DNA of 64,000 nt, taken from the NCBI GenBank assembly GCA_021771025.1, contig JAETPW010000007.1, positions 60,744-124,743 of the forward strand, in the 5' to 3' direction. Of the stretch, positions 4,794-59,199 are shown in pieces. Positions within the stretch are counted from its first letter, which is position 1; each line of letters opens with the position of its first letter. Source of the stretch: Clostridiaceae bacterium (lineage in GTDB: Bacteria; Bacillota; Clostridia; TANB77; CAG-508). The translations under genes and the position numbers were made by a program. The notes beneath the pieces were generated by a model. It saw only the letters and a program-made list of their open reading frames with translations. It made no database searches and was not told where the DNA came from.

Positions 4794-4961
4794 GGTTAAT
4801 TTATCCTCGAAAGATCACTTTCTTTTTATCTTACTTTAGCGTTGGAAATAGTTAGATTTAGTTAGTGAAAGAAAATAAGTAATGAATAAAACCAGTGAAT
4901 ACTATCTCTAAATATAGTATTCATTGGTTTTTGTCGTTACTAGATAATAGTTTTTACGAAT

Positions 4962-5160
4962 GAGTCCGCTCTGAACCCAAGGCATCTGTAGTATTTTTGG
5001 GATAAATTTAGTCTTCCATAGCAGGGGCATTTTAAAACCCTTAAGTCCCTAACGAAGAGGCCTGTAATCGGGTTTTAAGGCTGACGCGGGTCTTAGGGAA
5101 CTGTCAGACGTAAATTTATCCCAAAAATACTACAGATACCTTGGGTTCAGAGCTACTTTG
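4962..5160. repeat. MITE-like structured repeat, family S, copy 1 (about 199 bp with about 50-bp terminal inverted repeats)
   Basis: The left arm AGTCCGCTCTGAACCCAAGGCATCTGTAGTATTTTTGGGATAAATTTA is the reverse complement of the right arm. The conserved core TCCATAGCAGGGGCATTTTAAAACCCTTAAGTCCC...GGGTTTTAAGGC...TCTTAGGGAACTG is shared with copies at 55959-56156 and 58988-59106. Confidence 0.8.
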
Positions 5161-5265
5161 TTGGAAAAGATTATTCAGTAACTTTTTGTTCATAAATGAT
5201 CTCAATTTGTAGAAAAAAATAAAAAAATATGTTATAGTGTAAAAATAAAATAGGAGGAAAATAAC

Positions 5266-6135
5266 ATGGAATGGGATTTATTTGTTTCACATGCTTCAGA
5301 AGATAAAGATGACATTGTAAAACCGTTAGTCCAAGAATTAGAAAGCTATGGATTAAAAGTATGGTATGATGAATTTGAATTAAAGATAGGAGATAGTTTA
5401 TCAGAGTCAATAGATAAGGGAATTATTCACTCTAAAAATGGTTTACTGATAATCAGTAAAAGTTTTCTGAATAAAAATTGGACCGATTATGAATTAAAAA
5501 GTTTTATTATGAAAGAAACTGAACAAGGCGGAAATATTTTACCAATTTGGCACAATGTTACTAAAAAAGATATGATGAATAGAAGTTTATTTCTTGCCGA
5601 TAAATTTGCATTATCTTCTAGTATAGGAGTAAAAAAATTGGCCATAAAAATTTTACAAAAAATTAGACCAGATATATTAAGTAGTTATGCTTTAAAAAGT
5701 GCTGTTAGAAATGCTTATGCAGAAGAAAAGGGAAAATCAGAGAAAGTTAGCATTGAAGAGTTAAGAGATGGAAAAATAGTCCACAAATCACTTCCTAACT
5801 ATATTGTAGCTTCAAGCTTTTTGATTAGTCAAATATTTTCTGATGTATGGGATTCAGATTTTAATGACTTTATTGAAAACCTAGCAAGGGATTGGGATTA
5901 TGATAGAGAATTTTTTATCTGGAATGTCATTACCAGTTCCTATTTGATGTTTATCAGAAATAATAAAATTTCTTTTGATGATACGAAGAAGAAGAGAAAG
6001 GTCTTTGGTGATTTAGTTAATTTGTCATTTGGAATTGTAGAGCCAACTTTTCTTAGTAAAGATGAATTTAATATTTTAATACAGATTTATAAGTATAATT
6101 ATGATTTTATAGATCAATTTGGTCTGAAATCGTGA
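5266..6135 (+). CDS. TIR-domain protein (N-terminal Toll/interleukin-1 receptor domain, about 135 aa, plus an uncharacterised roughly 150-aa C-terminal domain)
   Basis: DLFVSHASEDKD box 1, VWYDEFELKIGDSL, and NWTDYELKSF, which matches the catalytic-glutamate motif WCLDEL of NADase TIRs. Strong SD site AGGAGG 8 nt upstream. Very AT-rich gene with no partner gene. Confidence 0.85.
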   Translation: MEWDLFVSHASEDKDDIVKPLVQELESYGLKVWYDEFELKIGDSLSESIDKGIIHSKNGLLIISKSFLNKNWTDYELKSFIMKETEQGGNILPIWHNVTKKDMMNRSLFLADKFALSSSIGVKKLAIKILQKIRPDILSSYALKSAVRNAYAEEKGKSEKVSIEELRDGKIVHKSLPNYIVASSFLISQIFSDVWDSDFNDFIENLARDWDYDREFFIWNVITSSYLMFIRNNKISFDDTKKKRKVFGDLVNLSFGIVEPTFLSKDEFNILIQIYKYNYDFIDQFGLKS

Positions 6136-10910: not shown

Positions 10911-10980
10911 GTCTACCTCCTTGTCAATTCCTAAATTTACTGTTATAATATCATAAAATTAAACAAGGGTCAAACTTTTT

Positions 10981-11040
10981 CGTTTTGGGGACGGTTCTCA
11001 AAACGAAAAAATCTTCCGTTTGAGAACCGTCCCCAAAACG
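10981..11040. repeat. palindromic repeat family R (GGGGACGGTTC core)
   Basis: A 25-bp near-perfect inverted repeat, CGTTTTGGGGACGGTTCTCAAAACG / CGTTTGAGAACCGTCCCCAAAACG. Relatives at 51049-51133, 54061-54127, 57651-57710 and 50243-50280. Confidence 0.7.
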
Positions 11041-11061
11041 AAAAAGAGAAAGGAAAAAAGA

Positions 11062-12421: not shown

Positions 12422-13609
12422 ATGTACGAAATATTTGCTGATTTACACGTTCACATCGGACGATCAGAAACAGGTAAACCCATTAAAATCACAGCAGCAA
12501 AATCACTTAATTTTGCCAATATTGCGAAGGAATGTGCTGAGCGAAAAGGAATTCAAGTAGTTGGCATTATTGATTGTGCCTCTCCCTATGTGATAGAAGA
12601 TATTGAGAAATTCTTACAAACAGGAGAAGCTTATGAATTAGAAGAAGGAGGAATCATATACCAAGATAAAGTATGTATTTTATTAGGAAGTGAAGTAGAA
12701 ACCTCAGAAGAAGGACGAAATGGAAAAAAAGGAGCTGCTCATAATATTTGTTTCTTTCCTCATTTGTCTGATATCAAACAATTTTCCCAGGAAATGAGTC
12801 ATCACATAAAAAATATCACATTAAGTACCCAAAGATCCGATTTATCTGGGTATGAATTAATCGACATTGTGGAAAAATACCAAGGGATTTTAATTCCTGC
12901 TCATATTTTTACGCCGTTCAAAAGTTATTATGGAAATTGTACAGACCGCATAAGATCTATTTTCAAAGAAAAATACGATAAAATCTGTGCTGTAGAATTG
13001 GGCTTAAGTTCAGACACGTATCTTGCTGATACCATTTCAGAACTGGAAAACAAAACGTTTCTAACCAATTCAGATGCTCATTCTTTGCCTAAAATTGCAA
13101 GAGAATACAATAAAATGTTAGTTGAAAAGATCTCTTTTACTGAAATTGTAAAGGCATTAAAAGGGCAAGAAGGAAGAAAAGTGTTAGCTAATTATGGATT
13201 AGACCCTAAATTAGGAAAATACCATAGAACCTATTGTGATGATTGTGAACAATCCATAGAAACCAAAGAACCAGTTCTAAGTTGTCCACATTGTGGAGGA
13301 AAAAATGTGACATTTGGTGTTTTCGATCGAATTGAACTCATTAAAGACAAAGAGCAAACCAAAAGTCCAGACATAAGACCTCCTTATATTTATCAAATTC
13401 CATTGGGATTTATCCCGGGAGTAGGAGGAAAAACGGTAGAGAAATTGTTAGCTCATTTTGAAACAGAAATGAACATTTTACATCGATTATCCAAAGATGA
13501 TTTAGAAGCTGTCGTAGGCGAAAAAATAGCAAGTCACATCGAAAAAGCAAGAACAGGAAATTGTGTAGTTCACGCCGGTGGTGGAGGAAACTACGGAAAA
13601 ATTGAATAA
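12422..13609 (+). CDS. PHP-domain protein of the TIGR00375/endonuclease Q-like family
   Basis: N-terminal ADLHVHIGRSETGKPIKITAA and a C-terminal Cys cluster (CDDC...CPHCGG) as in EndoQ-type enzymes. Confidence 0.6.
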   Translation: MYEIFADLHVHIGRSETGKPIKITAAKSLNFANIAKECAERKGIQVVGIIDCASPYVIEDIEKFLQTGEAYELEEGGIIYQDKVCILLGSEVETSEEGRNGKKGAAHNICFFPHLSDIKQFSQEMSHHIKNITLSTQRSDLSGYELIDIVEKYQGILIPAHIFTPFKSYYGNCTDRIRSIFKEKYDKICAVELGLSSDTYLADTISELENKTFLTNSDAHSLPKIAREYNKMLVEKISFTEIVKALKGQEGRKVLANYGLDPKLGKYHRTYCDDCEQSIETKEPVLSCPHCGGKNVTFGVFDRIELIKDKEQTKSPDIRPPYIYQIPLGFIPGVGGKTVEKLLAHFETEMNILHRLSKDDLEAVVGEKIASHIEKARTGNCVVHAGGGGNYGKIE

Positions 13610-19479: not shown

Positions 19480-19693
19480 TGAAAGTTAAAGATAGTAGAG
19501 AGGATAACTTATCTACTATTTTTTGTTTTTATTTGGAGCTACTATGATGCAAAAAGGATTATCAAGTAACTGTTATACTTTGGGCATTTTGTGAACCATT
19601 GACTTTTATGCAAATTTGCATCATCACCAAATCTATGTTATAATAAAACTACAAAATAATTGGCTAAATGCCTAAATAGAAAGGAGTATAGAT

Positions 19694-20074
19694 ATGAATA
19701 TTTATATCTATAACGATTATTTTGTACAAATGGATAAAATGCAGAACTTTTGCATTACATCTGAAGAAAATTTAAGAGCGATCCGGATAGAAAGTGCATA
19801 TCTTTATCAAAACTATGCTAACTATCCAAGTAATTTCTACGAAATAGCCATATTGATGGCAAGAGTAGAAATAGCTCGTATACAAAGGAAAAAAGCTAAT
19901 AGGGGAAGAAATTACCCTATTATTTACCAAAGAGAATTTACCATTTCATTGCAGAACTTTTTGCTGTTATATTCCATTGAACAACTAATTAGTGCAGTTG
20001 AGCAAATGAAATATAATGAGATGGAAAAGTGTTTCATGCAAGGAAATCTGAAAATTCTCGAAGAATACTTATAG
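19694..20074 (+). CDS. hypothetical protein
   Basis: 126-aa ORF with no recognisable motif. Confidence 0.4.
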   Translation: MNIYIYNDYFVQMDKMQNFCITSEENLRAIRIESAYLYQNYANYPSNFYEIAILMARVEIARIQRKKANRGRNYPIIYQREFTISLQNFLLLYSIEQLISAVEQMKYNEMEKCFMQGNLKILEEYL

Positions 20075-26718: not shown

Positions 26719-26740
26719 TTAAGAAGAGAAGCGATGAAAA

Positions 26741-26830
26741 TGTTTCATCCATTCAATCTAGGTACACTTTCAAAGTTTACCACTATTATGAAAGGAGGAA
26801 TATGTTAGTTTTAAACACTAACATATGCTA
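26741..26830 (+). promoter_or_regulatory. conserved leader element family L, copy 1 (hairpin plus 9-codon uORF overlapping the downstream start)
   Basis: TTCAATCTAGGTACACTTTCAAAGTTTACCACTATTATGAAAGGAGGAATATGTTAGTTTTAAACACTAACATATGCTAAGG. Related copies at 38655-38735, 50437-50504 and 54971-55066. Confidence 0.6.
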
Positions 26831-27286
26831 AGGAAAATGGCCAAAAATATGATAAAAGAAATCATCATATTGTTATTACTTACATTAGCTATTATTTTAA
26901 TCCTTGGAGTGCTACTCTATGGCTACTCTCCTTCTAGTAAGGTGTTGCCAGAAGCAGTATCCTATACTACACCAGAAAGTGTAAGAGAAGAATTAGCAAG
27001 TAGTACACAAGATGATGAAGATCAAATGGTGATGACGTATGAAATTACAGCATCTGATTTAAAAAATTACCAAAGAGTCAATGAATATGTACAAGGAAAA
27101 CGAAATCCATTTGCTTCTACAGCAACTTCAGAAAACAATAATTCAGGAAATACTACTTCAGGGGGGCAATCATCGGGAAATACTAATGGAAATGCCAATA
27201 CAAATACTAACACGAATGAAGGTTCATCAACATCTGGAAATAATCAGAATAATACTAATTATTTTCCTGATCGAGGAACCAAATAA
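26825..27286 (+). CDS. membrane protein with Ser/Asn/Thr-rich tail (pilus-cluster associated)
   Basis: N-terminal TM segment; C-terminal low-complexity NNSGNTTSGGQSSGNTNGNANTNTNTN. Confidence 0.5.
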   Translation: MLRKMAKNMIKEIIILLLLTLAIILILGVLLYGYSPSSKVLPEAVSYTTPESVREELASSTQDDEDQMVMTYEITASDLKNYQRVNEYVQGKRNPFASTATSENNNSGNTTSGGQSSGNTNGNANTNTNTNEGSSTSGNNQNNTNYFPDRGTK

Positions 27287-38654: not shown

Positions 38655-38735
38655 TATTCAATCTATGTAAGTTCTCAAAGTTTACCAATAGCAAGAAAGG
38701 GGGAATATGTTGGTTTTAAAAGCTAACATATGCTA
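38655..38735 (+). promoter_or_regulatory. leader element family L, copy 2
   Basis: TTCAATCTATGTAAGTTCTCAAAGTTTACCAATAGCAAGAAAGGGGGAATATGTTGGTTTTAAAAGCTAACATATGCTAG. The uORF MLVLKANIC stop overlaps the ATG of the M23 peptidase gene. Confidence 0.6.
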
Positions 38736-39977
38736 GAAACAATGCGTAAAATTTTATGTATCGTTTTCGCTTTTCTCATCTGTTTAGTCGCAACGTATGT
38801 ACAGGCAGAAGATATGAATACAACGAACACGAATCAAGGAGGAACAGATTTACAAACCAAGCAAAAAGAATTGCAAGATCAAATTAATCAGGCAAATGAT
38901 GAATTAAATCAAACGCAAAGTCAGCTTTCAGAAAATTTGCAACAAGTGCAAAAGTTAGATGAAAAAATTGCTGGATCTGAAACAGAACTGAGTGACTTAA
39001 CAGAAAAGATAGAAAACTTAAAAACGTCAATGAATAAGGTGCAGCAAGAATTAACGGAAGTAACAGAGCGTTATGAAAGGCAAAGACAAATTTTTGAACA
39101 ACGAATGGTAGCTATTTATGAGGCGGGAGATACTAATTATTTAGATATCCTTTTGCGTTCAAGAAGTGTTTCCGATTTTCTTTCTAGTTATTATGTTATT
39201 TCCGAAATAGCTGATTCAGATACAGAACTGTTAAATGATATAGCTGAAAAGAAAGACCAAATATCGCTTGCTAAACAAAAACTAGATAACGAAAAAACAG
39301 AGTTAGCACAAATGATTGAAACACAAAGTAGAACAGCTAAAATTTTGCAAAATACTAAGGTGATTCGTGAAAATTATATTGCTAAGTTATCAGAGGAAGA
39401 AAAAGCAAAACAGGCACAAATCGATGAATACAATCAAGCATTAGCACAAATCAATAGCCAAATTTTGCAATTAGCACAAGCAGGCATTGATACCCAATAC
39501 ATAGGAGGAGAATTAGCATGGCCAACACCAGGCTATACGAGAATTAGTTCTCCTTATGGAATGAGAGTACATCCGATTACTGGTGTTTATAAATTACATA
39601 CGGGAGTTGACATAGGAGCACCAATGGGAGCAAACTTTGTAGCTGCTAACGAGGGAATTGTTGTAAAATCAGAATATAATGTAGCTTACGGTAAAATGGT
39701 ACTGATTGACCATGGAGGAGGAATTTCCACCTTATATGCTCATGGATCTGAATTTTTAGTACAAGTAGGAGATTCAGTGACAAGAGGACAAGCCGTATTA
39801 AAGGTAGGATCTACTGGATATTCAACAGGTGCACATGCTCACTTTGAAGTAAGAAAAAATGGTTCACCAGTAAATCCAATGCCATACATTACGAATGGAA
39901 TAGTACCAAATTCAGAGCAAGATGCACAAGGAAATACTACTGCTACTAAAGAAGAAATACAAAATACAACCAATTAA
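38730..39977 (+). CDS. M23 family metallopeptidase with N-terminal coiled-coil domain (EnvC/FtsEX-partner-like)
   Basis: Long coiled coil followed by an M23 LytM domain (HTGVDIGAP...HAHFEV). Confidence 0.8.
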   Translation: MLETMRKILCIVFAFLICLVATYVQAEDMNTTNTNQGGTDLQTKQKELQDQINQANDELNQTQSQLSENLQQVQKLDEKIAGSETELSDLTEKIENLKTSMNKVQQELTEVTERYERQRQIFEQRMVAIYEAGDTNYLDILLRSRSVSDFLSSYYVISEIADSDTELLNDIAEKKDQISLAKQKLDNEKTELAQMIETQSRTAKILQNTKVIRENYIAKLSEEEKAKQAQIDEYNQALAQINSQILQLAQAGIDTQYIGGELAWPTPGYTRISSPYGMRVHPITGVYKLHTGVDIGAPMGANFVAANEGIVVKSEYNVAYGKMVLIDHGGGISTLYAHGSEFLVQVGDSVTRGQAVLKVGSTGYSTGAHAHFEVRKNGSPVNPMPYITNGIVPNSEQDAQGNTTATKEEIQNTTN

Positions 39978-41396: not shown

Positions 41397-41627
41397 GTAT
41401 GAAACAAAAATAAATACATAAGATAGAAATAAGAGGGGCGGAAATGAAGAATATCCGCCCGAAATTTATGTAATCATTGCTAAACACGAGAAAAACGAAA
41501 AGAAAATGCACTAATCGATAAAAATGATAAGATATACAAGGAATTTATTGTTAATTGGTTTATAGGTTAATCCTTAGAAAAACCTAAATCTGTTTGACAA
41601 GGAGATCATAGGCTAAAAGAACTACCT

Positions 41628-42848
41628 ATGTTAGGAAATATGGAAAAAAAGAAAAGCTATCAATTGTATAAAACCATCATGATGATTGCCTTAACAGCAT
41701 TCATTACATTTATGTTAACAACGATTGCAGGCTATACCTACATCACTAAAGGGGAGGGGAAAATTGCCTTTCTTAATACAGAAGAATCTAGTGATATTGA
41801 TACGGCATTGAATAAATATAAGACCATCATTGATCAATATTATTTAGGAGAAATAGATGAAGAAAAGTTAAAAGAAGGAGCCATTAAAGGCTATATTGAA
41901 GGGCTTGATGATCCTTATACCCAATATATATCCAAGGAAGATATGGAACAATATATGCAAGATATCCTAGGAAATTATGTAGGAATTGGTATTTATATGG
42001 TAAAAGATGCTAAAACCGGAAAAATCAAAGTAGTATCACCCATAAAAGGATCGCCAGCTGCTAAAGCAGGAATTTTACCGGGAGACATCATTGTTTCTGT
42101 TGATGGAAATGACTATTCATCAGAAGAGGCTGATACTATTTCAAATAAAATAAAAGGTGAGGCAGGTACAACAGTAAAATTACAGTTATTAAGAGGCACG
42201 CAAACACTTGATTTAGAAGTAAAAAGAGAAAGTATTACGGTAAATCCAGTAGAAGGAAAAATGCTAGAAAACCAAATTGGTTATATCGAATTTTCATCCT
42301 TTGATGAAAATACAGCAGAAGATTTTAAGAAAGAATATGAACAATTAGCCAAACAAAACCTAAAATCATTAATTATCGATTTACGAAATAATGGAGGAGG
42401 TTTAGTTTCTCAAGCACTAAAAATTGCCGATTATATGACTGACAAAGGATCTGTATTATTATATGAAGTAGACAAAAATGGTAAAGAAGAAGTAAAAAAA
42501 GCAGAAAATAATCCAATCATTCAAATTCCTATTATTATCTTAACCAATGAAAATACAGCAAGTGCATCAGAAATTTTAGCTGGTAGCTTAAAAGATTTAG
42601 GAAAAGCGAAAATTGTAGGAACAAAATCATACGGAAAAGGGGTTATTCAAGAAGTTCTTACTCTAAAAGATGGAAGTGGACTAAAAATTACCACAGAGGA
42701 ATACCAAACGCCGAACCGTAATAAAATCAATAAAGTAGGAATAGAGCCAGATGAAATGGTAGAATTACCAGATACAGTTACCAATGTTTTAGATGTACCA
42801 CAAGACCAAGATACTCAGTTAAAAAAAGCAATAGAAATGCTCAAATAA
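41628..42848 (+). CDS. ctpA: carboxy-terminal processing protease (S41) with PDZ domain
   Basis: PDZ region (GSPAAKAGILPGDIIVSVDG) and the S41 catalytic region (NENTASASEILAG...GTKSYGKG). Confidence 0.85.
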   Translation: MLGNMEKKKSYQLYKTIMMIALTAFITFMLTTIAGYTYITKGEGKIAFLNTEESSDIDTALNKYKTIIDQYYLGEIDEEKLKEGAIKGYIEGLDDPYTQYISKEDMEQYMQDILGNYVGIGIYMVKDAKTGKIKVVSPIKGSPAAKAGILPGDIIVSVDGNDYSSEEADTISNKIKGEAGTTVKLQLLRGTQTLDLEVKRESITVNPVEGKMLENQIGYIEFSSFDENTAEDFKKEYEQLAKQNLKSLIIDLRNNGGGLVSQALKIADYMTDKGSVLLYEVDKNGKEEVKKAENNPIIQIPIIILTNENTASASEILAGSLKDLGKAKIVGTKSYGKGVIQEVLTLKDGSGLKITTEEYQTPNRNKINKVGIEPDEMVELPDTVTNVLDVPQDQDTQLKKAIEMLK

Positions 42849-43617: not shown

Positions 43618-44094
43618 ATGGAAGAAAAAGACGTTATCCTTACCCAAGAAGGATATGAAAAGTTAGAAGAAGAATTAAATTTATTAAAAACAGATAAAAG
43701 AGCAGAGATTGCAGAAAGAATTAAAGTTGCTTTAGGGTTTGGAGATCTATCCGAAAACTCAGAATACGATGAAGCAAAAACAGCACAAGCAGAAAATGAA
43801 AACCGTATTGCTGAATTAGAAAACAAAGTAAGACACGCCAAAATTATTGATGAAAAAGACATTGATACAGACACTGTTCAAATTGGAAACATTGTTAAAG
43901 TATTAGACATGGAATTTGACGAAAAAATCGACTATACCATTGTTGGTTCAACAGAAGTAAATTTGGCTGAAAACAAAATTTCTAACGAATCACCTTTAGG
44001 ATCAGCTTTATTAGGAGCAAAGAAAAATCATGTAGTAGAAGTAAAAGCACCAGCAGGAGTCATGAAATATAAAATTTTGGACATTACCAAATAA
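43618..44094 (+). CDS. greA: transcription elongation factor GreA
   Basis: [18 protein letters not shown]... and acidic finger residues DLSENSEYD. Confidence 0.9.
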
Positions 44095-44250
44095 GAAAAA
44101 ATAAGGGAAAAAAATTATTTTATCTTTTGAAAAGAAGGATGATTTTTAACTAAAGATAAAATAATTTTTTTCCAAAAAGTATTGACAAACAAATGAAAAA
44201 GCTTTATAATAACTACTGTTACCGAGGAAACTTAGTAACCAACTAAATAT

Positions 44251-44565
44251 GGGTAGGTGGCCGAGTGGCTAAAGGCGGCAGACTGTGGTCTTTGGTAAAA
44301 ACAAAACCTAAACTTGCAGCTCTTGTCAGTAATGATAAGATGAACACCGGGCTAATTCGGGGAACTCTAAGGGTAGAAATACTGATGACAATCCCGAGCT
44401 AGGAAGAAAACTTCCGAGTGTAGAGACTTTATACCTGGTATCTTCTAAGCAGAAGATAAAGAGAAAGTCCAGACTACAAACATGGTAAAATGGTAGTGAA
44501 AACTATAGTAGTAAGAAATCTGTTCTCATTTGAGTACGATGGTTCGAATCCATCCCTGCCCACCA
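44251..44565 (+). tRNA. tRNA-Tyr (GUA) gene interrupted by a group I intron in the anticodon loop
   Basis: Exon 1 (44251-44286) gives acceptor GGGUAGG, D-arm GCC-GAGUGGCUAAA-GGC, and anticodon stem GCAGA plus CUGU. Exon 2 (44516-44565) gives AAA, UCUGU, a long variable arm, T-arm GAUGG-UUCGAAU-CCAUC, CCUGCCC-A-CCA. The spliced anticodon loop is CUGUAAA. The exon sequence is very close to Bacillus tRNA-Tyr. Confidence 0.7.
44287..44515 (+). ncRNA. group I self-splicing intron (229 nt) within tRNA-Tyr
   Basis: The upstream exon ends in U and the intron ends in G (omega-G). P-, Q-, R- and S-like elements are present (AATTCGGGGAAC, AATCCCGAGC, TCCAGACTACA, AAACTATAGTAG), and GCAG 30 nt inside the intron can pair with the exon end CUGU. 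Confidence 0.65.
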
Positions 44566-44595
44566 AAAATACAAGGAAACTTGTATTTTATTTTT
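44562..44595 (+). repeat. 34-bp direct repeat (att-like), left copy; also the tRNA terminator hairpin
   Basis: Identical to 49076-49109. Confidence 0.8.
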
Positions 44596-44638
44596 CTATT
44601 ACACACGAACAAAGGTTCTAAATAAAAAGGGGAAGAAT

Positions 44639-45019
44639 ATGAATTTTGCTACTAATAAAGAAAAGGGAAATTCAGGATTAGGCATAGCCATTGCCTATTT
44701 TTCGACGAATGGATATACTGTTTCCATACCGTTAAACGACACTCAAGATTATGATTTGATTGTAGAGAAAGACGGGAAATTGAAAACGATACAAATAAAA
44801 GCAACTGGATGTAAAACTAAATGGGGAAATTATCAAGTAGCTTTAAAAAGTTGTGGTGGAACAAAGGGGAAAAGTTATAAGACAGTCATTGAGACGAGAG
44901 TAGATGAATTATTTATCGTAAATGATAGGCAAGAGATGTACCTAATTCCCATTAATGATATTAAGAATAAATCAACTTTAACCTTATGTTCAAAGTATGA
45001 TAAATATAGAGTTTACTAA
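44639..45019 (+). CDS. small PD-(D/E)xK-fold nuclease-like protein (YraN/Hjc-like pattern)
   Basis: GNSGLGIAIAYFSTNGYTVSIPLNDTQDYDLIVEKDGKLKTIQIKAT follows the G-GE-A--L---GY-I....GEIDLI....L-FVEVK template of UPF0102-type nucleases. Confidence 0.4.
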   Translation: MNFATNKEKGNSGLGIAIAYFSTNGYTVSIPLNDTQDYDLIVEKDGKLKTIQIKATGCKTKWGNYQVALKSCGGTKGKSYKTVIETRVDELFIVNDRQEMYLIPINDIKNKSTLTLCSKYDKYRVY

Positions 45020-45183
45020 TATTTCTGTGCTTTAAATTTTGTAGTAAATTTAAAATTGGTTTAAATAAGTCTCTAATAGAAAAATGCAAGATATGCAGTT
45101 ACTCATTTCTGTAAGTAATTGTTTTTTTTGTAATTTTGTGATATAAAATTGGTAAAATAAAAATTTATACGAGGAGAAAAGTA

Positions 45184-45733
45184 AATGGATAATTATTTTA
45201 TAATACATGGAAGCTTTGGAAGCCCGTTGTAAATTGGTTTAGTTGGTTACAAGATTTTATATCATGTGATGGAAAACAAGTATATGTACCACAATTTCCA
45301 ATAGGAGTAGGTTATCAAAATTATGGAAATTGGAGTAAACTACTTAAATACTATTTAGATTTAGGTTTAATCAATAAAAATACAACAATAATCGGTCATA
45401 GTATTGCACCAGTATTTATATCAAGATTTTTAATTGAAAATGAAGTAAAGGTCAAAAAATTAATATTTGTATGTGGATTTAACAATTATTTAGGAATAGA
45501 CGAAGAATATGATACAGTAAATAAAACAATGTATTTTGATAATTTGAAAGATGTAAAGAAATATGCAAATGAAATTATTTGTTTCTATTCAGAAATGATC
45601 CATATGTAAAATACGAAGTAGAAAGAGAATTTGCAGACAAGATTCGGGGCAGAGCAAGTTCTATTACCTAATGCAGGACACATAAATAGCGAAAGTGGAT
45701 ATGACACATTTGAAGACATAGCAAATTATATTT
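45184..45733 (+). pseudogene. YdeN/RBBP9-like serine hydrolase, disrupted by frameshifts
   Basis: MDNYFIIHGSFGSP, then stop. Other frames give NWFSWLQDFISCDGKQVYVPQFP...IIGHSIAPVFISRF...ICFYSE and then a frameshifted C-terminus. The ORF track shows nothing of 60 aa or more here. Confidence 0.5.
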
Positions 45734-45746
45734 AAAGAGGTAAAAA

Positions 45747-46095
45747 ATGAAAATAGTAAAATTTAGTGATGCACAAACAGTAAAAAATAGTCATACAAGT
45801 AAATTATTAGAATATTCGATAGATTTAAATGATAAAGATATTGATTTTTGTATAAATACAATTAGTGGTCAATATCCAGAAAAAGGATATTGCACTAATG
45901 AAAGATGCAAAGAAATCTGTTATATACTAGAGGGAAAGGGAACTCTTAATAAAAGAGATGAAAGTATTAATTTTGAAAAAGGTGTGTATTTTAATAGAAA
46001 AAGAAGAAATTTACTATTGGAATGGAAATTGCGAAATAATTATGATATGCACTCCTGCTTGGTATAAAGAACAATGTAAGTTATTAGATTTATAG
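45747..46095 (+). pseudogene. cupin-domain protein with probable C-terminal frameshift
   Basis: The ORF ends with FNRKRRNLLLEWKLRNNYDMHSCLV, whereas the +1 frame reads the cupin-typical EKEEIYYWNGNCEIIMICTPAWYKEQ. Confidence 0.4.
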
Positions 46096-46121
46096 AAAAA
46101 ATTTTAAAGGAGATAAATAAT

Positions 46122-47174
46122 ATGTCAAATCAATTTCAACTATTAGATGATCACTTTATAAAAATTGTAAAAGATATTGAAAAGGATATTTTAGATACAA
46201 GATATAATATCATTTCAAGGGCAAATAAAGAGGTGGTAAATTTTTATTTAAGACTTGGAAAAATAATTAGTGATAATGCTAAATATGGGAATAATTTTAT
46301 TAATAGATTATCAGTAGCATTAAAATTAGATTTTCCAGATGAGCAGGGATTTTCGGCTCGTAATCTAGCAAGAATGAGAAAAGTATATGAAGCATATAAA
46401 GATTTATCTAGTATTCCAAAAGAATTAGAAATAATATCATGGTCACAAAATTGTGTTTTAGTAGATAAAATTGAAGATATTGATAAAAGAGTTTGGTATG
46501 CTAAGCAAATTATTGAAAATGGTTGGTCTAAAACTGTATTAAGCCATCAAATTGATTTAGAATTATATGAAAGACAAGCATTACCAGATAAAATGACCAA
46601 TTTTAATGATAAGCTACCTATTGCACAAAGCGAATTTGCTAGAGATATGATAAAAGATCCATATATTTTTGAATTAGCTAACATAGGAAAAAGAGCAAAA
46701 GAAAGAGATATTGAAAAGGCAATGTTAGAAAGAATAAAGAATGTGTTGCTTGAATTAGGCAAAGGTTTTAGTTTTGTTGGAAATCAATATAAAATTTCAA
46801 CCAATGATAATGATTATTATATAGATTTATTATTTTATCACTTGGATTTAAGATGTTTTGTAGTTGTAGAATTAAAAAATACAGAGTTTAAACCTGAATA
46901 TGTTGGACAATTAGGATTTTATGTAACAGCAGTTGATGAAACTTTGAAAAAAGAAACAGACAATGAAACGATAGGATTATTACTTTGTGAAGATAAGGAT
47001 AAACTAACAGTTGAATGGTCTTTAAAAGGTGTAAATGCACCAATAGGAGTAGCTTCATATAAAGTGAAAAATGTTATTCCAAAAGAAATAATGGAGAAAT
47101 TACCAACGGAAGAAGAATTAAATTTATATATAAAAAAATTACCAAATGAGGAAATTGAAGGAGAAAGTGATTAG
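46122..47174 (+). CDS. DUF1016 (YhcG-like) protein with C-terminal PD-(D/E)xK nuclease domain
   Basis: YhcG-type N-terminal domain; C-terminal nuclease motif D-LLFYH...VVVELK. Paralog of the fragment at 1-279. Confidence 0.75.
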   Translation: MSNQFQLLDDHFIKIVKDIEKDILDTRYNIISRANKEVVNFYLRLGKIISDNAKYGNNFINRLSVALKLDFPDEQGFSARNLARMRKVYEAYKDLSSIPKELEIISWSQNCVLVDKIEDIDKRVWYAKQIIENGWSKTVLSHQIDLELYERQALPDKMTNFNDKLPIAQSEFARDMIKDPYIFELANIGKRAKERDIEKAMLERIKNVLLELGKGFSFVGNQYKISTNDNDYYIDLLFYHLDLRCFVVVELKNTEFKPEYVGQLGFYVTAVDETLKKETDNETIGLLLCEDKDKLTVEWSLKGVNAPIGVASYKVKNVIPKEIMEKLPTEEELNLYIKKLPNEEIEGESD

Positions 47175-47180
47175 TATTTT

Positions 47181-47206
47181 GAAATTTGCCACTGGTGGCA
47201 AATTTC
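47181..47206 (+). other. palindromic hairpin between the DUF1016 gene and the downstream gene
   Basis: GAAATTTGCCACTGGTGGCAAATTTC. A variant, GAAATTTGCCGCCAGTGGCAAAATTT, follows the next gene at 49042-49067. Confidence 0.6.
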
Positions 47207-47230
47207 ATATATAGATTGTATGAGGAAAAA

Positions 47231-49036
47231 ATGAAAGAATTAGATAATAAAATAAATTTAGGAAAAGTAACGGAAAATCACTTTAAAGAAAGTAAATCAA
47301 TAACAATTTTAAGAGAAATTGTAGAGAAAAATAATAGAATTAAGGTAAGAGCAACTGAAGCAGATAAAATAGCAAATTTAGATGGTAAAGTAGTAATAAT
47401 AGATAAAAATAGTTTCGAAAGGATTCATATTGAAATACAAGTAAAAACATTACCAGAAAAATATAATTTGAGGAAACAGTATTCATATAGTTGCGATACA
47501 AAAGCTTTCAATGTTGTTTTAGAACATATTACATTTAATTCAGTTGTATTATTTTTGGTTGATGAGCAAACAAATAGAGTATTTTGGAAATTAATTTCAA
47601 ATGAATATGCAAAAAGTTTGAATATCGGAAATCAAGAAAAAAAGACAATATATTTTAATGATCAAGATTTATATAGTGAAAATAATTTTATAGAAAAGAT
47701 AAGCGATTATTGTGATTCACTTTGTGAAATAATAGATAAAAAAGATGCTAATAAAAGTTTAATTTCATCAAATATAGATGAATATAGTACAGAATATATA
47801 GAGATACAAATGCAAGTTGACAGATTAAAAAATATATTCGATAATGAATTAAAACATATTAAAGATGTATTTTTTAAATATGTATGGAAATTTGGAATAT
47901 CATATAATAAGTTTCAAAAGCAAACTGCAATGGGCATTTATTTTATTACATATGGAAAGAATGATACTTTAATAAAAAGATTTGACCCTAGACTAAATTA
48001 TATACATATGTCTATTAATTTTCAAAAAAATATTACATTAGAAGCATATATTAATGAATGGTTAGAAGAAGTAAAAAAACAATATTATTTAAAAGAACCA
48101 ATTCTTGTGAAAAATTTATCAGATGATATATTGAATGAAATTGTATTTAGTTTTTTAGATAAACTAACAATGAATATTAAAGTATTAGAAGATAAAAATA
48201 GACCATACACATACTATAAAGATGAGGAAAAAGTCAATAATATAGTTAATCTTATAAATGCTTTAGAATTATTTTATGAAGAAATAATAAAAACGAAAGA
48301 TTTGTCAAATGTAAGTAGTGCTGTTGCTTTTCTTACACCTACATATAATTTGACTGGCAAATTCTTACTCTTTAACCCTCTTATACAATTTAATGCTGAT
48401 GAAATAAAATTGTTAAACCAATATTTTAATCAAACTAATCCCAATGTCCCTCTAAAATTTTTGGATAATGGAGAAGATAAAAAAATACAATTAAGTTTTT
48501 TAGCAATACAAGAATTACAGAAACGTACAAGGGACAGTATAAAAAGAATATGGAATAAGAAAAATATAGTAAAATGTAAAGAAGATTTTGCAAAAGAAGT
48601 TCAATGTATTAGAACAGGGTATTCTAAAGAAGATTTAATAATAAATTCAAAGCACTTTTTTGATATTATTGCCGAAAATTATAATTTTGTGTTTAATAAG
48701 TCTAGTTATTCAGATAAATATTATTTAGATGATTTACATTTAATAGTGTTAGATGAAAACGAAATACAAACATATAATGATTATATTACCCAAAATAATG
48801 TTTTCGAAGTGAAAAGGATTTGTAATGATATAAAAATTGATGAAGAGAATATTATTTCTATAATTGAATCTAATTTAGAATGCTTATTTTTGCTAGATAC
48901 TCCACTATATGAAACTGTTAGAATATTGTTATATATTGGTATTATGAAAAATAATGACTATAAAGTAAAAGATGAAAATGTAAACTATAGTGTTAAATTT
49001 GAAGAATTACCTATCATTAATTATTATATAGATTAA
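47231..49036 (+). CDS. 601-aa protein with N-terminal DUF4365/Mrr-like PD-(D/E)xK-type domain and a large uncharacterised C-terminal region
   Basis: ATG at 47231 with a GAGGA RBS. N-terminus LDGKVVIIDKNSFERIHIEIQVKT...FWKLIS fits the D...E.QVK signature of the DUF4365 restriction-endonuclease-like fold. The remaining roughly 430 aa have no recognisable motif. About 24% GC. Confidence 0.55.
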   Translation: MKELDNKINLGKVTENHFKESKSITILREIVEKNNRIKVRATEADKIANLDGKVVIIDKNSFERIHIEIQVKTLPEKYNLRKQYSYSCDTKAFNVVLEHITFNSVVLFLVDEQTNRVFWKLISNEYAKSLNIGNQEKKTIYFNDQDLYSENNFIEKISDYCDSLCEIIDKKDANKSLISSNIDEYSTEYIEIQMQVDRLKNIFDNELKHIKDVFFKYVWKFGISYNKFQKQTAMGIYFITYGKNDTLIKRFDPRLNYIHMSINFQKNITLEAYINEWLEEVKKQYYLKEPILVKNLSDDILNEIVFSFLDKLTMNIKVLEDKNRPYTYYKDEEKVNNIVNLINALELFYEEIIKTKDLSNVSSAVAFLTPTYNLTGKFLLFNPLIQFNADEIKLLNQYFNQTNPNVPLKFLDNGEDKKIQLSFLAIQELQKRTRDSIKRIWNKKNIVKCKEDFAKEVQCIRTGYSKEDLIINSKHFFDIIAENYNFVFNKSSYSDKYYLDDLHLIVLDENEIQTYNDYITQNNVFEVKRICNDIKIDEENIISIIESNLECLFLLDTPLYETVRILLYIGIMKNNDYKVKDENVNYSVKFEELPIINYYID

Positions 49037-49075
49037 AATGTGAAATTTGCCGCCAGTGGCAAAATTTATTTTCAA

Positions 49076-49109
49076 ACCAAAAATACAAGGAAACTTGTAT
49101 TTTATTTTT
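49076..49109 (+). repeat. 34-bp direct repeat (att-like), right copy
   Basis: Identical to 44562-44595. Confidence 0.8.
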
Positions 49110-49238
49110 ATTTTTTATTATCGAATAAAAAATAACCCTCAATCCCAAAAAAAGTAAATAAATCACCAAACTCCATTGAAATTATCCCCAAAATGTGATA
49201 AAAATATAGTCAGCATAAATGAAGGAGGAAAAGCCAAA

Positions 49239-50332: not shown

Positions 50333-50436
50333 TTCATTTAATCTGCTGGAAATGTTCCCTTATTCCAAATAAAATCATAAACTATCATGAGGTGAAAGCT
50401 AAAAAATAATGTTTACTAGTTAATAATAAGTAAACA

Positions 50437-50504
50437 TTCAACGTTTACTAAAAGCAAGAAGGGAGGAAAAGGTTCGTTTTTAAACTAACATAACCTAACC
50501 AAAC
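50437..50504 (+). promoter_or_regulatory. leader element family L, copy 3 (degenerate)
   Basis: CAACGTTTACTAAAAGCAAGAAGGGAGGAAAAGGTTCGTTTTTAAACTAACATAACCTAACC. Confidence 0.45.
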
Positions 50505-51048: not shown

Positions 51049-51133
51049 CTGTCCCTAAAACGAAAAAATCTTCCTTTTGAGAACCGTCCCCAAAAAGAAA
51101 AAAACTTCTTTTTGGGGACGGTTCTTAAAAAGA
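51049..51133. repeat. repeat family R copy (18-bp perfect palindrome AGAACCGTCCCCAAAAAG / CTTTTTGGGGACGGTTCT)
   Basis: Read directly from the sequence. Confidence 0.7.
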
Positions 51134-51206
51134 AAAAATTAAGATTTTCTCTATTTGTTCTTAAGGTTTTTTGTGGTATACTATTGATAATAAGAGGAGG
51201 AGAGTT

Positions 51207-54012: not shown

Positions 54013-54060
54013 ACTTTTTTCAAAATTTCTTGAACAAGCTTATCAATTGTGATAAAATAA

Positions 54061-54127
54061 AGAAAATCTTCTTTTTGGGGACGGTTCCGAAAACGAAAAA
54101 ATTTTCTTTTTAGGGACAGGTTTCAAG
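54061..54127. repeat. repeat family R copy
   Basis: TTTTTGGGGACGGTTCCGAAAACGAAAAAATTTTCTTTTTAGGGACAGG. Confidence 0.65.
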
Positions 54128-54169
54128 TGAAGAAAACAAAGGATAAGGTAAACTTAAGGAGGCTTCTTC

Positions 54170-54892: not shown

Positions 54893-54970
54893 AAAAGAAA
54901 AGGAAAAAGACAAAATAAAGGGAAAAGTGTTGCTGCCAAGAGTTAACTTAAAGGAAAAAGGTTGAAAAAT

Positions 54971-55066
54971 TATGTTTACCCATCCACTCTAGGTAAGTTT
55001 TTAAAACCTGATTTATACGAAGAAAGGAGGAAGGGCTAGCTTCCAAAGCTAACCTATGCTAAAAAT
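54971..55066 (+). promoter_or_regulatory. leader element family L, copy 4 (rearranged, uORF lost)
   Basis: ...CTAGGTAAGTTTTT...GAAAGGAGGAAGGGCTAGCTTCCAAAGCTAACCTATGCTAAAAATATGG aligns position by position with copies 1 and 2 and keeps the hairpin via TAGCTT/AAGCTA. Confidence 0.5.
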
Positions 55067-55960
55067 ATGGAAGATTTATCACAATTAGAAATGTGTACAA
55101 TTTGTCCACATACTTGCCAAGTTAATCGTTTGCAAAAGCAAAAGGGGAGATGTGGAGCAGAGGATACAGTGCGTATAGCCTTAGCATCGGTCTATCACTT
55201 TGAAGAGCCATGCCTAAGTGGAAAAAGAGGGTCAGGTACTGTATTTTTTTCTCACTGTACGATGAGGTGTGAGTATTGTCAAAATTATGAAATTAGTAGT
55301 TTAGGCAAAGGAAAAGAAATAACAGTAGAAGAATTAGCAGAAATTTTCTTAAAGCAACAAGAAAAGCAGGTTCATAATATTAATTTGGTAACCCCGACGA
55401 GTTATGTGCCACAAATCAAAAAAGCAATTGAGTTAGCTAGAAATCAGGGACTACAACTGCCAATTGTCTATAATACGAATGGCTATGAAACAGTAGAAAC
55501 GATAAAGGAATTAGATGGCTATGTAGATATTTATTTACCGGATTTCAAATATGCAGAAGATGAATTGGCAAAGCGTTTATCTCATGTAGATCATTATTTT
55601 TCGACAGTGGCACAGGCCATTTTAGCCATGCAAAAACAAGTAGGAGATGCGGTTTTTGATGACGAAGGCATGATGCAAAAAGGATTGATCATTAGGCATT
55701 TGATTTTACCGAATCATATCATTAATACAAGAAAAGTACTCAAGTGGATTAATGATTATTTGCCAAATGTGTATGTAAGCATTATGGCTCAATATTTTCC
55801 TACTTACCGAGCAAAGCAAATAGAAGAGATTAATCGAAAGATAACTGATGAGGAATATCAAAAAGTGGTGCGTTATTTAGATCGTTTAGTACTAACGAAT
55901 GGGTATTTACAGGAATTAGGAGAACATGAGGAGGAATATGTGCCAAAGTGGGAGGGATAA
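55067..55960 (+). CDS. radical SAM activating-enzyme-like protein (PflA/AmmeMemoRadiSam-type)
   Basis: N-terminal CTICPHTCQV...GRCG cluster plus CTMRCEYCQN radical-SAM CxxxCxxC. Confidence 0.65.
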   Translation: MEDLSQLEMCTICPHTCQVNRLQKQKGRCGAEDTVRIALASVYHFEEPCLSGKRGSGTVFFSHCTMRCEYCQNYEISSLGKGKEITVEELAEIFLKQQEKQVHNINLVTPTSYVPQIKKAIELARNQGLQLPIVYNTNGYETVETIKELDGYVDIYLPDFKYAEDELAKRLSHVDHYFSTVAQAILAMQKQVGDAVFDDEGMMQKGLIIRHLILPNHIINTRKVLKWINDYLPNVYVSIMAQYFPTYRAKQIEEINRKITDEEYQKVVRYLDRLVLTNGYLQELGEHEEEYVPKWEG

Positions 55961-56156
55961 GTCCGCTCTGAACCTGAGGTATCTGTAATATTTTTTAGAT
56001 AAATTTAGTCCTCTATAGCAGGGGCATTTTAAAACCCTTAAGTCCCTCACAAAGAAGCTTGTTATCGGGTTTTAAGCCTAACGTGAGTCTTAGGGAACTG
56101 TTAGACGTAAATTTATCTAAAAAATATTACAGATACCTCAGGTTCAGAGCTACTTT
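55959..56156. repeat. MITE-like structured repeat, family S, copy 2
   Basis: AAGTCCGCTCTGAACCTGAGGTATCTGTAATATTTTTTAGATAAATTTA...core...TAAATTTATCTAAAAAATATTACAGATACCTCAGGTTCAGAGCTACTTT. The terminal-repeat differences from copy 1 are compensated in both arms. It overlaps the radical SAM stop codon. Confidence 0.8.
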
Positions 56157-56274
56157 AGTGTAAAAGTATTATTAGCCAGTAACTCAAATTTTAGAAAAAT
56201 ACCCGAAAAATGTAGAAAAAAGAAATGCGGTATGGTATACTCATATTGAGTAAGAAAACAAGGAGGAAAATAAA

Positions 56275-58910: not shown

Positions 58911-58987
58911 AATCCATTGGTTATTATTCACAGCTTGCTGAAATTGGTAACCGTGTAAAAAAGGAAGCCTAGCTAATGGTGATCATA

Positions 58988-59106
58988 TTAATTTAACCTT
59001 CCATAGCAGGGTCAATTTAAAACCCTTAGGTCCCTCACATGGAAGCCTGTTATCGGGTTTTAAGCCTAACGTGGGTCTTAGGGAACTGTCAGGTATAAAT
59101 TATAAC
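58988..59106. repeat. family S copy 3 (core only, lacks the long terminal inverted repeats)
   Basis: AATTTAACCTTCCATAGCAGGGTCAATTTAAAACCCTTAGGTCCCTCACATGGAAGCCTGTTATCGGGTTTTAAGCCTAACGTGGGTCTTAGGGAACTGTCAGG. Confidence 0.7.
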
Positions 59107-59199
59107 AACTATTAATCAAAGCCAAAAATCTTACTCATAGACATCTTGCTAATCCCTACCGAATATGATAAAATAAACCCAAACAAAGGAGGGATATTT

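Follow-up and report, generated by a model that had tools for sequence, protein, structure and literature searches.

What is a strong Shine-Dalgarno (SD) sequence doing more than thirty nucleotides (nt) upstream of a start codon, with a hairpin in between? This question is raised by a 64,000-nt stretch of the genome of a Clostridiaceae bacterium (GenBank assembly GCA_021771025.1, contig JAETPW010000007.1, positions 60,744 to 124,743), referred to here as the window, in which genes for a pilus-operon membrane protein, a PcsB-like M23 peptidase, an Amidase_6 protein and a radical SAM enzyme are preceded by related leaders. The organism also turns up in the mouse gut runs SRR13008602, SRR13008591 and SRR13008589 and in ERZ941365. 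An original prediction, made from the DNA alone, had described this set, family L, as a leader of about 80 nt. We found the four leaders in front of the four genes named, alignable over ~100 nt, and, with unit boundaries set by comparison with relatives, the conserved unit proved longer than predicted, spanning 99-101 nt in each copy. We consider it probable that family L is a dispersed non-coding cassette of ~100 nt copied into the short SD-ATG spacer of several genes in one low-GC, spore-forming gut Clostridia lineage. Arguing by analogy with genes 25 and 38 of phage T4, we further favor the view that this cassette creates a split ribosome-binding site (RBS). The four long copies in the window are designated c1 to c4, three shorter ones copies 5 to 7, and related public contigs or loci carry labels of the type L002; coordinates are collected in Table 1.

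From 5' to 3', the unit begins with an A-rich segment, RGCTnAAAAATnATGTTTAC. Next come a run of pyrimidines, which reads CATCCAnTC in c1 and c4, and the box CTAkGTAAGT, which pairs with a partner further downstream into a local hairpin. An A-rich linker then leads into a near-perfect SD, GAAAGGAGG, followed after 1-4 nt by a second hairpin (ATGTTAG-loop-CTAACAT in c1 and c2) and the tail ATGCT. The element ends read GGCTCAAAATAAT on the left and CATATGCT on the right. The strong SD, previously noted for the first two copies, is present in all four (GAAAGGAGG in c1 and c4, GAAAGGGGG in c2, GAAGGGAGG in c3). A repeat finder aligned c1 and c2 with 74% identity across 129 nt (its family D5), and CTAACATATGCTA, allowing up to two mismatches, has seven matches in the window against 2.2 expected, with c1-c4 all among them. 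Hairpins of other sequence, equivalent to the upstream hairpin P1 of c1, occur in c2, c3, c4 and L002. The downstream hairpin had been thought to be kept by compensatory changes in both c3 and c4; this holds for c4, through one compensatory pair and one wobble pair, but the c3 hairpin is weakened by two uncompensated mismatches (minimum free energy, MFE, of -4.5 kcal/mol). Scans with Rfam 15 recovered only one tRNA in the window at gathering thresholds and nothing meaningful around c1 up to an E-value of 10; at these gathering and permissive thresholds, a known RNA family is not supported.

The start codons behind two of the leaders had to be revised. More than 20 orthologs of the PcsB-like M23 peptidase (62-92% identity) all begin with MRK(I/Y/N)LC, an additional MLET or MLGT being called only in the two nearest relatives (95-99% identity), both of which carry the element; likewise, all orthologs of the c1 gene begin with MAKN(I/M)IKEII. 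Given these N-termini, the sequence comparison places the true starts at 26837 for the c1 gene and 38742 for the c2 gene rather than at 26825 and 38730. The ATG within ATATGCTAA belongs to the tail of the element, and gene callers evidently mis-place starts at such sites, as the public calls for the closest relatives begin at this spurious ATG (MLETMRK...). The small upstream open reading frames (uORFs) MLVLNTNIC* in c1 and MLVLKANIC* in c2 read exactly as predicted; since the start codons had been mis-assigned, however, their stop does not overlap the main ATG and lies 6 nt upstream of it.

The layout in front of the true starts is remarkably constant. In 18 of 18 family members the hairpin lies 9-14 nt from the ATG of the long open reading frame (ORF) and 1-4 nt from the SD, distances that were not imposed by the search patterns. 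The hairpin has 7-12 bp, with a core of 19-24 nt and a length of up to 35 nt, and the distal SD is 31-40 nt from the ATG; pairing of the proximal region with 16S rRNA is weak, at about -5 to +2.5 kcal/mol, above the cut-off of -7. The layout is also not restricted to the four genes originally listed. A screen for SD strength left about ten real window genes without a proximal SD, seven of which have a strong distal SD, an immediate hairpin and 8-15 nt to the ATG: the c1-c4 genes and those starting at 29775 (pseudopilin), 34814 (ROK kinase) and 41640 (CtpB-like protease). By census, the layout occurs at six sites in the window (seven with copy 7) and at seven in 58 kb of close relatives; it precedes 13 of ~102 genes in the window and close relatives and none of 77 across 106 kb from relatives with 65-72% identity (Fisher p = 7e-4). 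In this sample, the SD-hairpin-ATG layout is thus lineage-specific.

Two properties of these sites point to translation. First, duplexes of the distal SDs with the 16S 3' tail have energies of -12.6 to -15.0 kcal/mol, compared with a median of -10.2 for 89 ordinary genes of the lineage (Mann-Whitney p = 1e-5, with one value per independent site). Second, the hairpin, with MFE values of -4.5 to -14.8 kcal/mol and z scores of -2.9 to -6.5, behaves as a structure under constraint: across a 12-pair stem in 23 family members, 81% of cells are paired vs 27-41% when the partners are slid by 1-3 columns, eight of the 12 stem pairs have changed on both sides, and none of 500 shuffles reaches the observed values. 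The covariation indicates that the hairpin, once in place, is kept by compensatory substitutions. The original prediction had proposed shared post-transcriptional or operator control; the layout does indicate the level of translation initiation, with the hairpin rather than the peptide being constrained, but a common regulon did not emerge.

These same arms could, alternatively, be read as an operator, perhaps together with the upstream hairpin, for a trans-acting RNA-binding regulator, small RNA or DNA-binding protein that governs a co-regulated set in the manner of the Neisseria REP2/CREN repeats. The arms ATGTTAG and CTAACAT recur unchanged at unrelated genes and in several species, with loops that vary freely, and in gpmI orthologs the same arms enclose five different loops; a likeness to the 5' arm is seen in the upstream box TATGTAAGT; and REP2 repeats with an RBS and two stem-loops do confer coordinate regulation (PMC3184786). 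Against this, the spacing between the arms varies from 5 to 10 nt, which is unusual for a dimeric DNA operator, the older copies 5, 6 and 7 retain pairing but not sequence, the downstream genes lack a common function, and no candidate regulator was identified. Hence, we regard an operator as unlikely. Comparisons with particular systems, made from the sequence alone, likewise failed: the arms differ from those of the CIRCE/HrcA operator, parS, cre and LacI-type operators gave no match, the core sites are in the wrong order for an integron attC, pairing of the arms with 16S rRNA found no support, and a resemblance to the spliceosomal 5' splice site and branch point is a coincidence that is absent in the short forms.

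The constancy of the hairpin also bears on the mini-ORF, for which the original prediction had proposed translational coupling or attenuation through the stop/start overlap. As formulated after the revision of the starts, ribosomes would initiate at AUG(1) in the 5' arm, melt the hairpin, terminate at UAA or UAG and reinitiate at the real AUG. AUG(1) is indeed found in most canonical members, and the frame it opens ends 3-14 nt short of the real start in c1, c2, L001, L004, L005, L007, L009, L031, L056, L058 and L070. It is, however, the first triplet of the 5' arm and only 1-4 nt from GGAGG, vs an SD-to-start spacing of 5-11 nt in ordinary genes of the window; an SD spacing of 1-4 nt is below the functional range. 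Moreover, c3, c4, copy 6 and copy 7 lack both AUG(1) and the uORF, whose length and frame vary elsewhere: in L003, L006 and L069 its stop falls within the hairpin, and in L002 it forms an in-frame fusion. Nor is the peptide itself conserved, and the ATG is accounted for as the complement of CAT in the 3' arm. We therefore deem coupling improbable, and bypassing of the T4 gene-60 type, from AUG(1) to AUG(2), was discarded because AUG(1) is missing in several copies.

How did these leaders come to be where they are? The site of c2 is empty in four related contigs, L074 (92% amino acid identity) and L075-L077, where 10 nt with an ordinary SD separate the ftsX stop from the ATG; it reads GTGTAAAGGAGAAACCATGCGT in L074, and the window has 115 nt at the same place. 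L085 (95% identity) carries the orthologous c2 element, which can be aligned base for base. In the three-way alignment, agreement with the empty site extends as far as GAGAAA in the left flank and resumes at AGAAAC in the right one, and AGAAA, present once in the empty site, stands on both sides of the filled element as a 5-bp duplication. Similarly, the c1 site is empty in L082 and L083 (93-94%) and L084 (69%), which have the upstream stop, 18-19 nt with GGAAAGGAG, and then ATGGCAAAAAAT. Since close relatives have 10-19 nt and an ordinary SD at these two sites, the comparison indicates that the leaders of c1 and c2 are recent insertions, relative to those relatives, between the SD and the ATG. 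At the c4 site, L078 (88% identity) has only a short SD-hairpin module, L079, L080 and L081 have a normal SD, and relatives at 80% and 72% identity have a plain SD. Immediately to the left of all four window copies lies an SD-like, purine-rich remnant, which is mutated in c1 (GGAAAGGAG to TAAGAAGAG) and c2 (AAGGAG to AATGAG) and intact in L085; such decay fits relaxed selection once the element took over. The original prediction had itself named, as the outcome that would undo it, a motif that is merely the 3' end of a repeat without any relation to start codons: the motif does belong to a dispersed repeat, as its 3' part, but a strict 9-14 nt to the starts is kept in every real member.

The two halves of the cassette have fared differently. 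Between the window and L085, about one third of the positions of the c2 5' half differ, and the SD-hairpin half is almost unchanged except for the loop. With regard to individual copies, the 5' half in L085 (9897-10012, compared with 38627-38741 of the window) is nearer to c4 and L006 than to its own ortholog, and c2 of the window is nearer to c1. The comparison suggests gene conversion or concerted evolution among copies within a genome.

Such dynamics also lend something to a rival reading in which the cassettes would be selfish or neutral, with hairpins serving mobility (transposase recognition in the style of REP or IS200/IS605 elements), the genes being translated through the A/G-rich tail, reinitiation following the upstream gene or the old SD, and the cassette SD being incidental or a remnant of the target site. 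In keeping with this are the recent gains and the variable presence of the element among close relatives, the similarity of the left and right hairpins in the same orientation, at least four other small repeat families in the window, the c2 5' half that is ~33% different from its L085 ortholog yet like other copies, as under concerted evolution, and the weak AGGA motifs in some tails (c1, L006, copy 5 and copy 7). Nevertheless, we find a purely selfish or neutral element unlikely: the SDs of the split sites are significantly stronger than ordinary ones, the old SDs decay following insertion, the half with the SD and hairpin is far better conserved than the 5' half, the arms co-vary in immobile orthologous copies, and an SD-like motif is lacking from most tails, where the proximal energies are -2 to +2 kcal/mol. 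A more elaborate proposal, which we put forward tentatively and hold to be somewhat less probable than its negation, is that the cassettes are a previously undescribed non-autonomous mobile element whose niche is the SD-ATG spacer. It would be self-neutralized by the folding of its hairpin and, in the long form, by a stronger replacement SD, after which the host gene would become hairpin-dependent; copies would be gained, lost and homogenized, rewiring translation initiation across a clade of gut Clostridia.

The short modules offer a view of immobile copies. The module before the pseudopilin gene (copy 5) persists in L082, L083 and L085, its hairpin altered by a single compensatory change (T-A to C-G) and two wobble changes; L084 has a normal SD there. 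Before the ROK kinase gene (copy 6), L083 and L085 have identical arms with a different loop, L082 has different yet mutually complementary arms between identical SD and tail sequences, and L076, L077 and L084 have a normal SD. Copy 7, before the protease gene, has a related hairpin in L074 and a normal proximal SD in L085 and L075-L077. In more distant relatives the sites of copies 5, 6 and 7 all have a plain proximal SD. We also observed that the hairpin-less site in L085 (~12770-12816) reads GAAGGAGTGAACCATG, vs the hairpin-bearing sequences at 41599-41642 of the window and 4552-4596 of L074, and that the presence or absence of copy 7 is at odds with the relatedness suggested by the neighboring M23 gene.

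The module also occurs in other species. A scan of one genome per species with the pattern AAAGGRGGAA-N14-20-CTAACMTANNCTA gave nine matches, all in uncultured gut Clostridia or Clostridium metagenome-assembled genomes and one per genome; all nine have the 5' arm ATGTTAG and an ATG of a long ORF 3-7 nt after the CTA, although neither was demanded by the pattern. The downstream genes encode a class-V aminotransferase, a class A penicillin-binding protein (PBP), DnaJ, a glycosyltransferase, iPGM (gpmI), an ABC ATPase, NusB and a WG-repeat protein, a spectrum at variance with the sporulation or cell-envelope gene set initially envisaged. A metagenome scan, with the SD and both arms fixed and nothing specified downstream, yielded 46 matches, 14 of them unique, mostly on gut contigs of low GC (26-33%); L040 and L044 (41-44% GC) look like chance matches. 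Nearly all have an ORF start 9-14 nt after the hairpin; in L036, one contig of low coverage, the distance is 18 nt. Not all of them have the AnnCTA tail. As a control for chance, nine matches in viral contigs to the hairpin plus ANNCTA, without the demand for an SD, all fall in unrelated sequence and include none with an SD or start codon nearby. The 5' half is also carried by L002, L006 and L008, and hence the long form exists in other species; the other matches are short, at ~20-35 nt, and consist of the hairpin alone or of the hairpin and AnnCTA. A covariance-model scan of 308 kb (the window and related loci) returned the known copies and only a few weak ones (L009 6396-6439, L074 4552-4596 and L007 5135-5179). 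The first of these is a second, weaker module beside the canonical one of L009: GAAGGGAGA, GTTAGC-loop-GCTAAC, 11 nt, then ATG (20.9 bits). On two human gut contigs, L031 (905-960) and L036 (3214-3290), the upstream region, SD and hairpin are common and the sequence and genes diverge right after the 3' arm; L036 is one contig with a coverage of 1.6x, and the divergence may stem from chimeric assembly or from a genuine rearrangement at the hairpin.

The variable tail is relevant to a transcriptional reading, in which the CATAnnCTA box would be a promoter -10 element (sigma-K-like, or sigma-A-like with TAnnCT) firing 4-8 nt downstream to give leaderless mRNAs. The sequence CATAnnnTA, which fits the sigma-K -10 consensus in three of the four window copies, was indeed seen, and TAnnCT lies 4-8 nt from the ATG, with a mode of 6, in the box-bearing members. 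The sigma-E/K/G matches that the original prediction had suggested looking for did not materialize beyond this: neither AC (expected 16-17 bp upstream for sigma-K) nor another conserved -35 element stands at the right distance, where GT or TG is found instead, and the AnnCTA tail is missing in several members. A by-eye check against the consensus sequences for sigma-K, E, G, F and H promoters gave no -35 match, and sigma-70 promoter and terminator scans of the four leaders found no conserved promoter, the one candidate being upstream of the c3 element. Further, the box is missing in L034, L056, L058, L070 and copies 5-7, yet their distance from hairpin to ATG is kept; the target genes are housekeeping ones; and a promoter leaves the strong SD and co-varying arms unexplained. 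We accordingly attach very little credence to it.

Returning to the split RBS, we propose that the hairpin would loop out ~20-35 nt of mRNA and thereby bring the distal SD to within ~10-15 nt of the AUG. With the extra RNA folded away, an insertion could be tolerated; the cassette SD would replace the displaced one, and the gene would afterwards depend on the hairpin, which would in turn account for the compensatory evolution of the arms. Phage T4 supplies the precedent: a hairpin between SD and AUG brings the two from 22 nt to 5 nt apart in gene 38 and from 27 nt to 11 nt apart in gene 25 and enhances initiation, whereas mutations that open it lower initiation (PMC3014915). The likeness lies in an SD more than 20 nt from the AUG, a hairpin that shortens the distance and the conservation of that hairpin among relatives (Nivinskas et al. 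1999; Malys and Nivinskas 2009; PMC3014915), with the cassette going from 31-40 nt to ~10-15 nt. The T4 sites are single phage genes with unrelated hairpins; here, in contrast, one hairpin family stands before many cellular genes in several species, arrives as an insertion, brings its own SD in the long form, and has a putative function.

Several observations weigh against this interpretation, and against the mobile origin proposed with it. The spacing that remains after folding is 11-18 nt if the 7-bp core is removed and ~9-12 nt with extended stems, vs 5-11 nt in ordinary genes and 11 nt in T4 gene 25, which places it toward the upper limit of spacings with known function. CATCC-type segments pair with the cassette SD in the predicted MFE folds of c1, c2 and c4, leaving the SD partly paired, and the predicted minimum-energy fold of L006 and L008 has an alternative long helix in place of the hairpin. 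The arms are more conserved across species than pairing alone demands, which could reflect recognition by a protein. Both public-collection patterns that yielded the relatives required an SD, so that the association with the SD outside the window is partly imposed, and a hairpin-only search of 610 kb of collected sequence gave no unselected extra canonical copies, with or without an SD. As for mobility, flanking repeats are clear at c2 (AGAAA, checked against the empty site) and c4 (AAAAA) and ambiguous at c1 and c3; terminal inverted repeats were not found when the left end, GGCTCAAAATAAT, was compared with the reverse-complemented right end, AGCATATGTTAGC; and no transposase, including those of the Y1 type, is present among the annotated genes of related loci or the window ORFs scanned.

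The 5' half may add a further layer. Its box, TATGTAAGT, hardly differs from TATGTTAGT, the 5' arm, and is able to pair with the 3' arm in its place, which gives the long helix predicted for L006 and L008; it has GG in c4 where the 3' arm has CC, and TG and CA are the respective pairs in c2. Speculatively, the anti-SD-like CATCC, the second hairpin and the segment pairing with the 3' arm may modulate access to the SD as a switch. The same features could equally be two similar end-hairpins of a mobile element, the left hairpin (TATGTAAGT...ACTTACA) being similar to the right one (TATGTTAGT...ACTAACATA), in the same orientation and near the two ends.

Among known repeats, the closest in form are the Neisseria REP2 (CREN) repeats, which confer coordinate regulation, and Borrelia IR-A: both are dispersed repeats of ~100-150 nt directly upstream of unrelated ORFs, with an RBS and two stem-loops (PMC3184786). 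Unlike the cassette, in which the sigma-70 scans detected no conserved promoter and whose ATG belongs to the host gene and lies outside the inserted segment at c2, the REP2 and Borrelia repeats also carry a promoter and the ATG; moreover, REP2 belongs to unrelated organisms, has no sequence similarity to the cassette, and has not been described as placing a hairpin between SD and AUG. The cassette shares with transposable elements of the miniature inverted-repeat type (MITEs), REP and IS200/IS605 palindromes a small, non-coding, multi-copy, hairpin-bearing nature and presence/absence variation among close relatives. The 5-bp duplication at c2 (and c4, with ambiguous flanks at c1 and c3) and the empty sites at c1 and c2 would suit a MITE, but the cassette is without terminal inverted repeats; similar hairpins in the same orientation near both ends recall IS200/IS605, but the apparent target duplication at c2 argues against such mechanics. 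A 2024 review of MITE functions mentions neither the ribosome nor the Shine-Dalgarno sequence nor the start codon (PMC10969869). MITE, REP and IS200/IS605 elements have neither a built-in SD nor such a strict position within the SD-ATG spacer. The mycobacterial MIRUs, reported by Supply and colleagues in 1997, are said to be intercistronic repeats with overlapping small ORFs, thought to preserve downstream expression. They resemble the cassette in lying between operon genes; however, MIRUs are proposed to act by way of a small ORF with ends that overlap the flanking genes, and in the cassette the small ORF is dispensable and the hairpin constant. We found no description in the open-access literature of hairpin elements colonizing the SD-ATG spacers of many genes.

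Table 1. Positions in the window of the long cassettes, their parts, the short modules and other small repeats
Feature	Position	Strand	Context and remarks
c1 long cassette, 100 nt	26730..26829	+	between old SD remnant AAGAAGAGAAG (26721-26731) and ATG 26837 of the pilus-operon membrane protein
c1 candidate anti-SD, pyrimidine-rich, CATCCATTC	26746..26754	+	complementary to cassette SD; pairs with UGAAAGGAGG in MFE fold; prediction
c1 upstream hairpin P1, GGTACACTTT-C-AAAGTTTACC	26761..26781	+	read from sequence
c1 cassette SD, GAAAGGAGG	26790..26798	+	38 nt from start codon; duplex with 16S 3' tail -15.0 kcal/mol
c1 hairpin P2, ATATGTTAGT / ACTAACATAT, loop 7	26800..26826	+	followed by 10-nt tail and ATG 26837; family covariation
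c2 long cassette, 100 nt	38635..38734	+	between ftsX and PcsB-like M23 peptidase gene (ATG 38742)
c2 parts	SD 38695-38703; hairpin 38705-38731; AGAAA flanks 38630-38634 and 38735-38739	+	
c2 old SD, mutated to ATGAGAAA	38627-38634	+	
c3 long cassette, 99 nt	50398..50496	+	upstream of Amidase_6 gene (ATG 50505)
c3 parts	old SD GAGGTGA 50389-50395; left hairpin 50409-50437; SD 50458-50466; degraded hairpin 50472-50489	+	
c4 long cassette, 101 nt	54960..55060	+	upstream of radical SAM gene (ATG 55067)
c4 parts	old SD-like AAAGGAAAAAGG 54950-54961; SD 55022-55030; hairpin 55033-55055	+	AAAAA on both flanks
Copy 5, short module	29722..29777	+	pseudopilin gene (ATG 29775); SD GAAAGGAGA; hairpin 29732-29766 (TGTATGTTAACA / TGTTAACATACA); 8-nt tail; covariance model 41 bits
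Copy 6, short module	34768..34816	+	ROK kinase gene (ATG 34814); SD AGAAAGGAG; hairpin 34778-34802 (GAAGGTAG / CTATCTTC); 11-nt tail
Copy 7, short module	41599..41642	+	CtpB-like S41 protease gene (ATG 41640); SD AAGGAG; hairpin 41607-41630 (CATAGG / CCTATG); 9-nt tail
Small repeat families	10965-11045, 51057-51137, 54055-54135; 1168-1222, 34584-34638, 36684-36738; 9036, 20096, 54820, 58835		

The window holds other repeats besides the cassette. A repeat of ~210 nt, at 4960-5169, 55957-56166 and 58945-59154 with partial copies near 36827 and 63959, has terminal inverted repeats of ~45 nt (CTCTGAACCTGAGGTATCTGTAATATTTTTTAGATAAATTTA ... reverse complement) and looks like a classical MITE situated downstream of genes; public contigs with the radical SAM gene (L010-L018) all break ~34 nt past its stop, where this repeat begins, and a gene for a TIR-domain protein (5266-6135, 289 aa) adjoins one copy. 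Three more small intergenic families are built around GGGGACGG or GGGGACGCCC palindromes, some of which look like shared terminator hairpins. The MITE-like repeat and the several families of the GGGGACGG type suggest that the genome is generally permissive to small repeats. A low-GC island at 44000-49100 (27% vs ~32%), with copies of a 39-nt direct repeat at its borders (44562-44600 and 49076-49114, 95% identical), has genes for two nucleases, PDDEXK_5 and YhcG/DUF1016, and for a DUF4365 protein of 600 aa; it may be a defence or mobile island. Within it, at 47100-47260, the likely DUF4365 start is separated from an SD-like GAAGGAG by a perfect 12-bp hairpin (GAAATTTGCCAC-TG-GTGGCAAATTTC), with 14 nt before the hairpin and at least 24 nt after it; this is outside the geometry of the split RBS, and the hairpin may be a terminator without a T-run. 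At 19685-19740, an 11-bp hairpin (TATAGATATGA / TTATATCTATA) encloses the ATG at 19694, whose SD is normal; an alternative start would be 19730, behind the hairpin.

If the proposed mechanism is correct, the cassette would be a compact natural part, a strong SD with an insulating hairpin, for the design of expression systems in Clostridia, and both start prediction and expression models based on SD spacing would fail in these organisms. Small repeats would be able to enter the most sensitive few bases of a gene without destroying it, hidden by the folding of the RNA. Moreover, the hairpin-bridged split RBS would then be no mere phage curiosity, as it would be used by more than one in ten of the sampled genes of a bacterial lineage.

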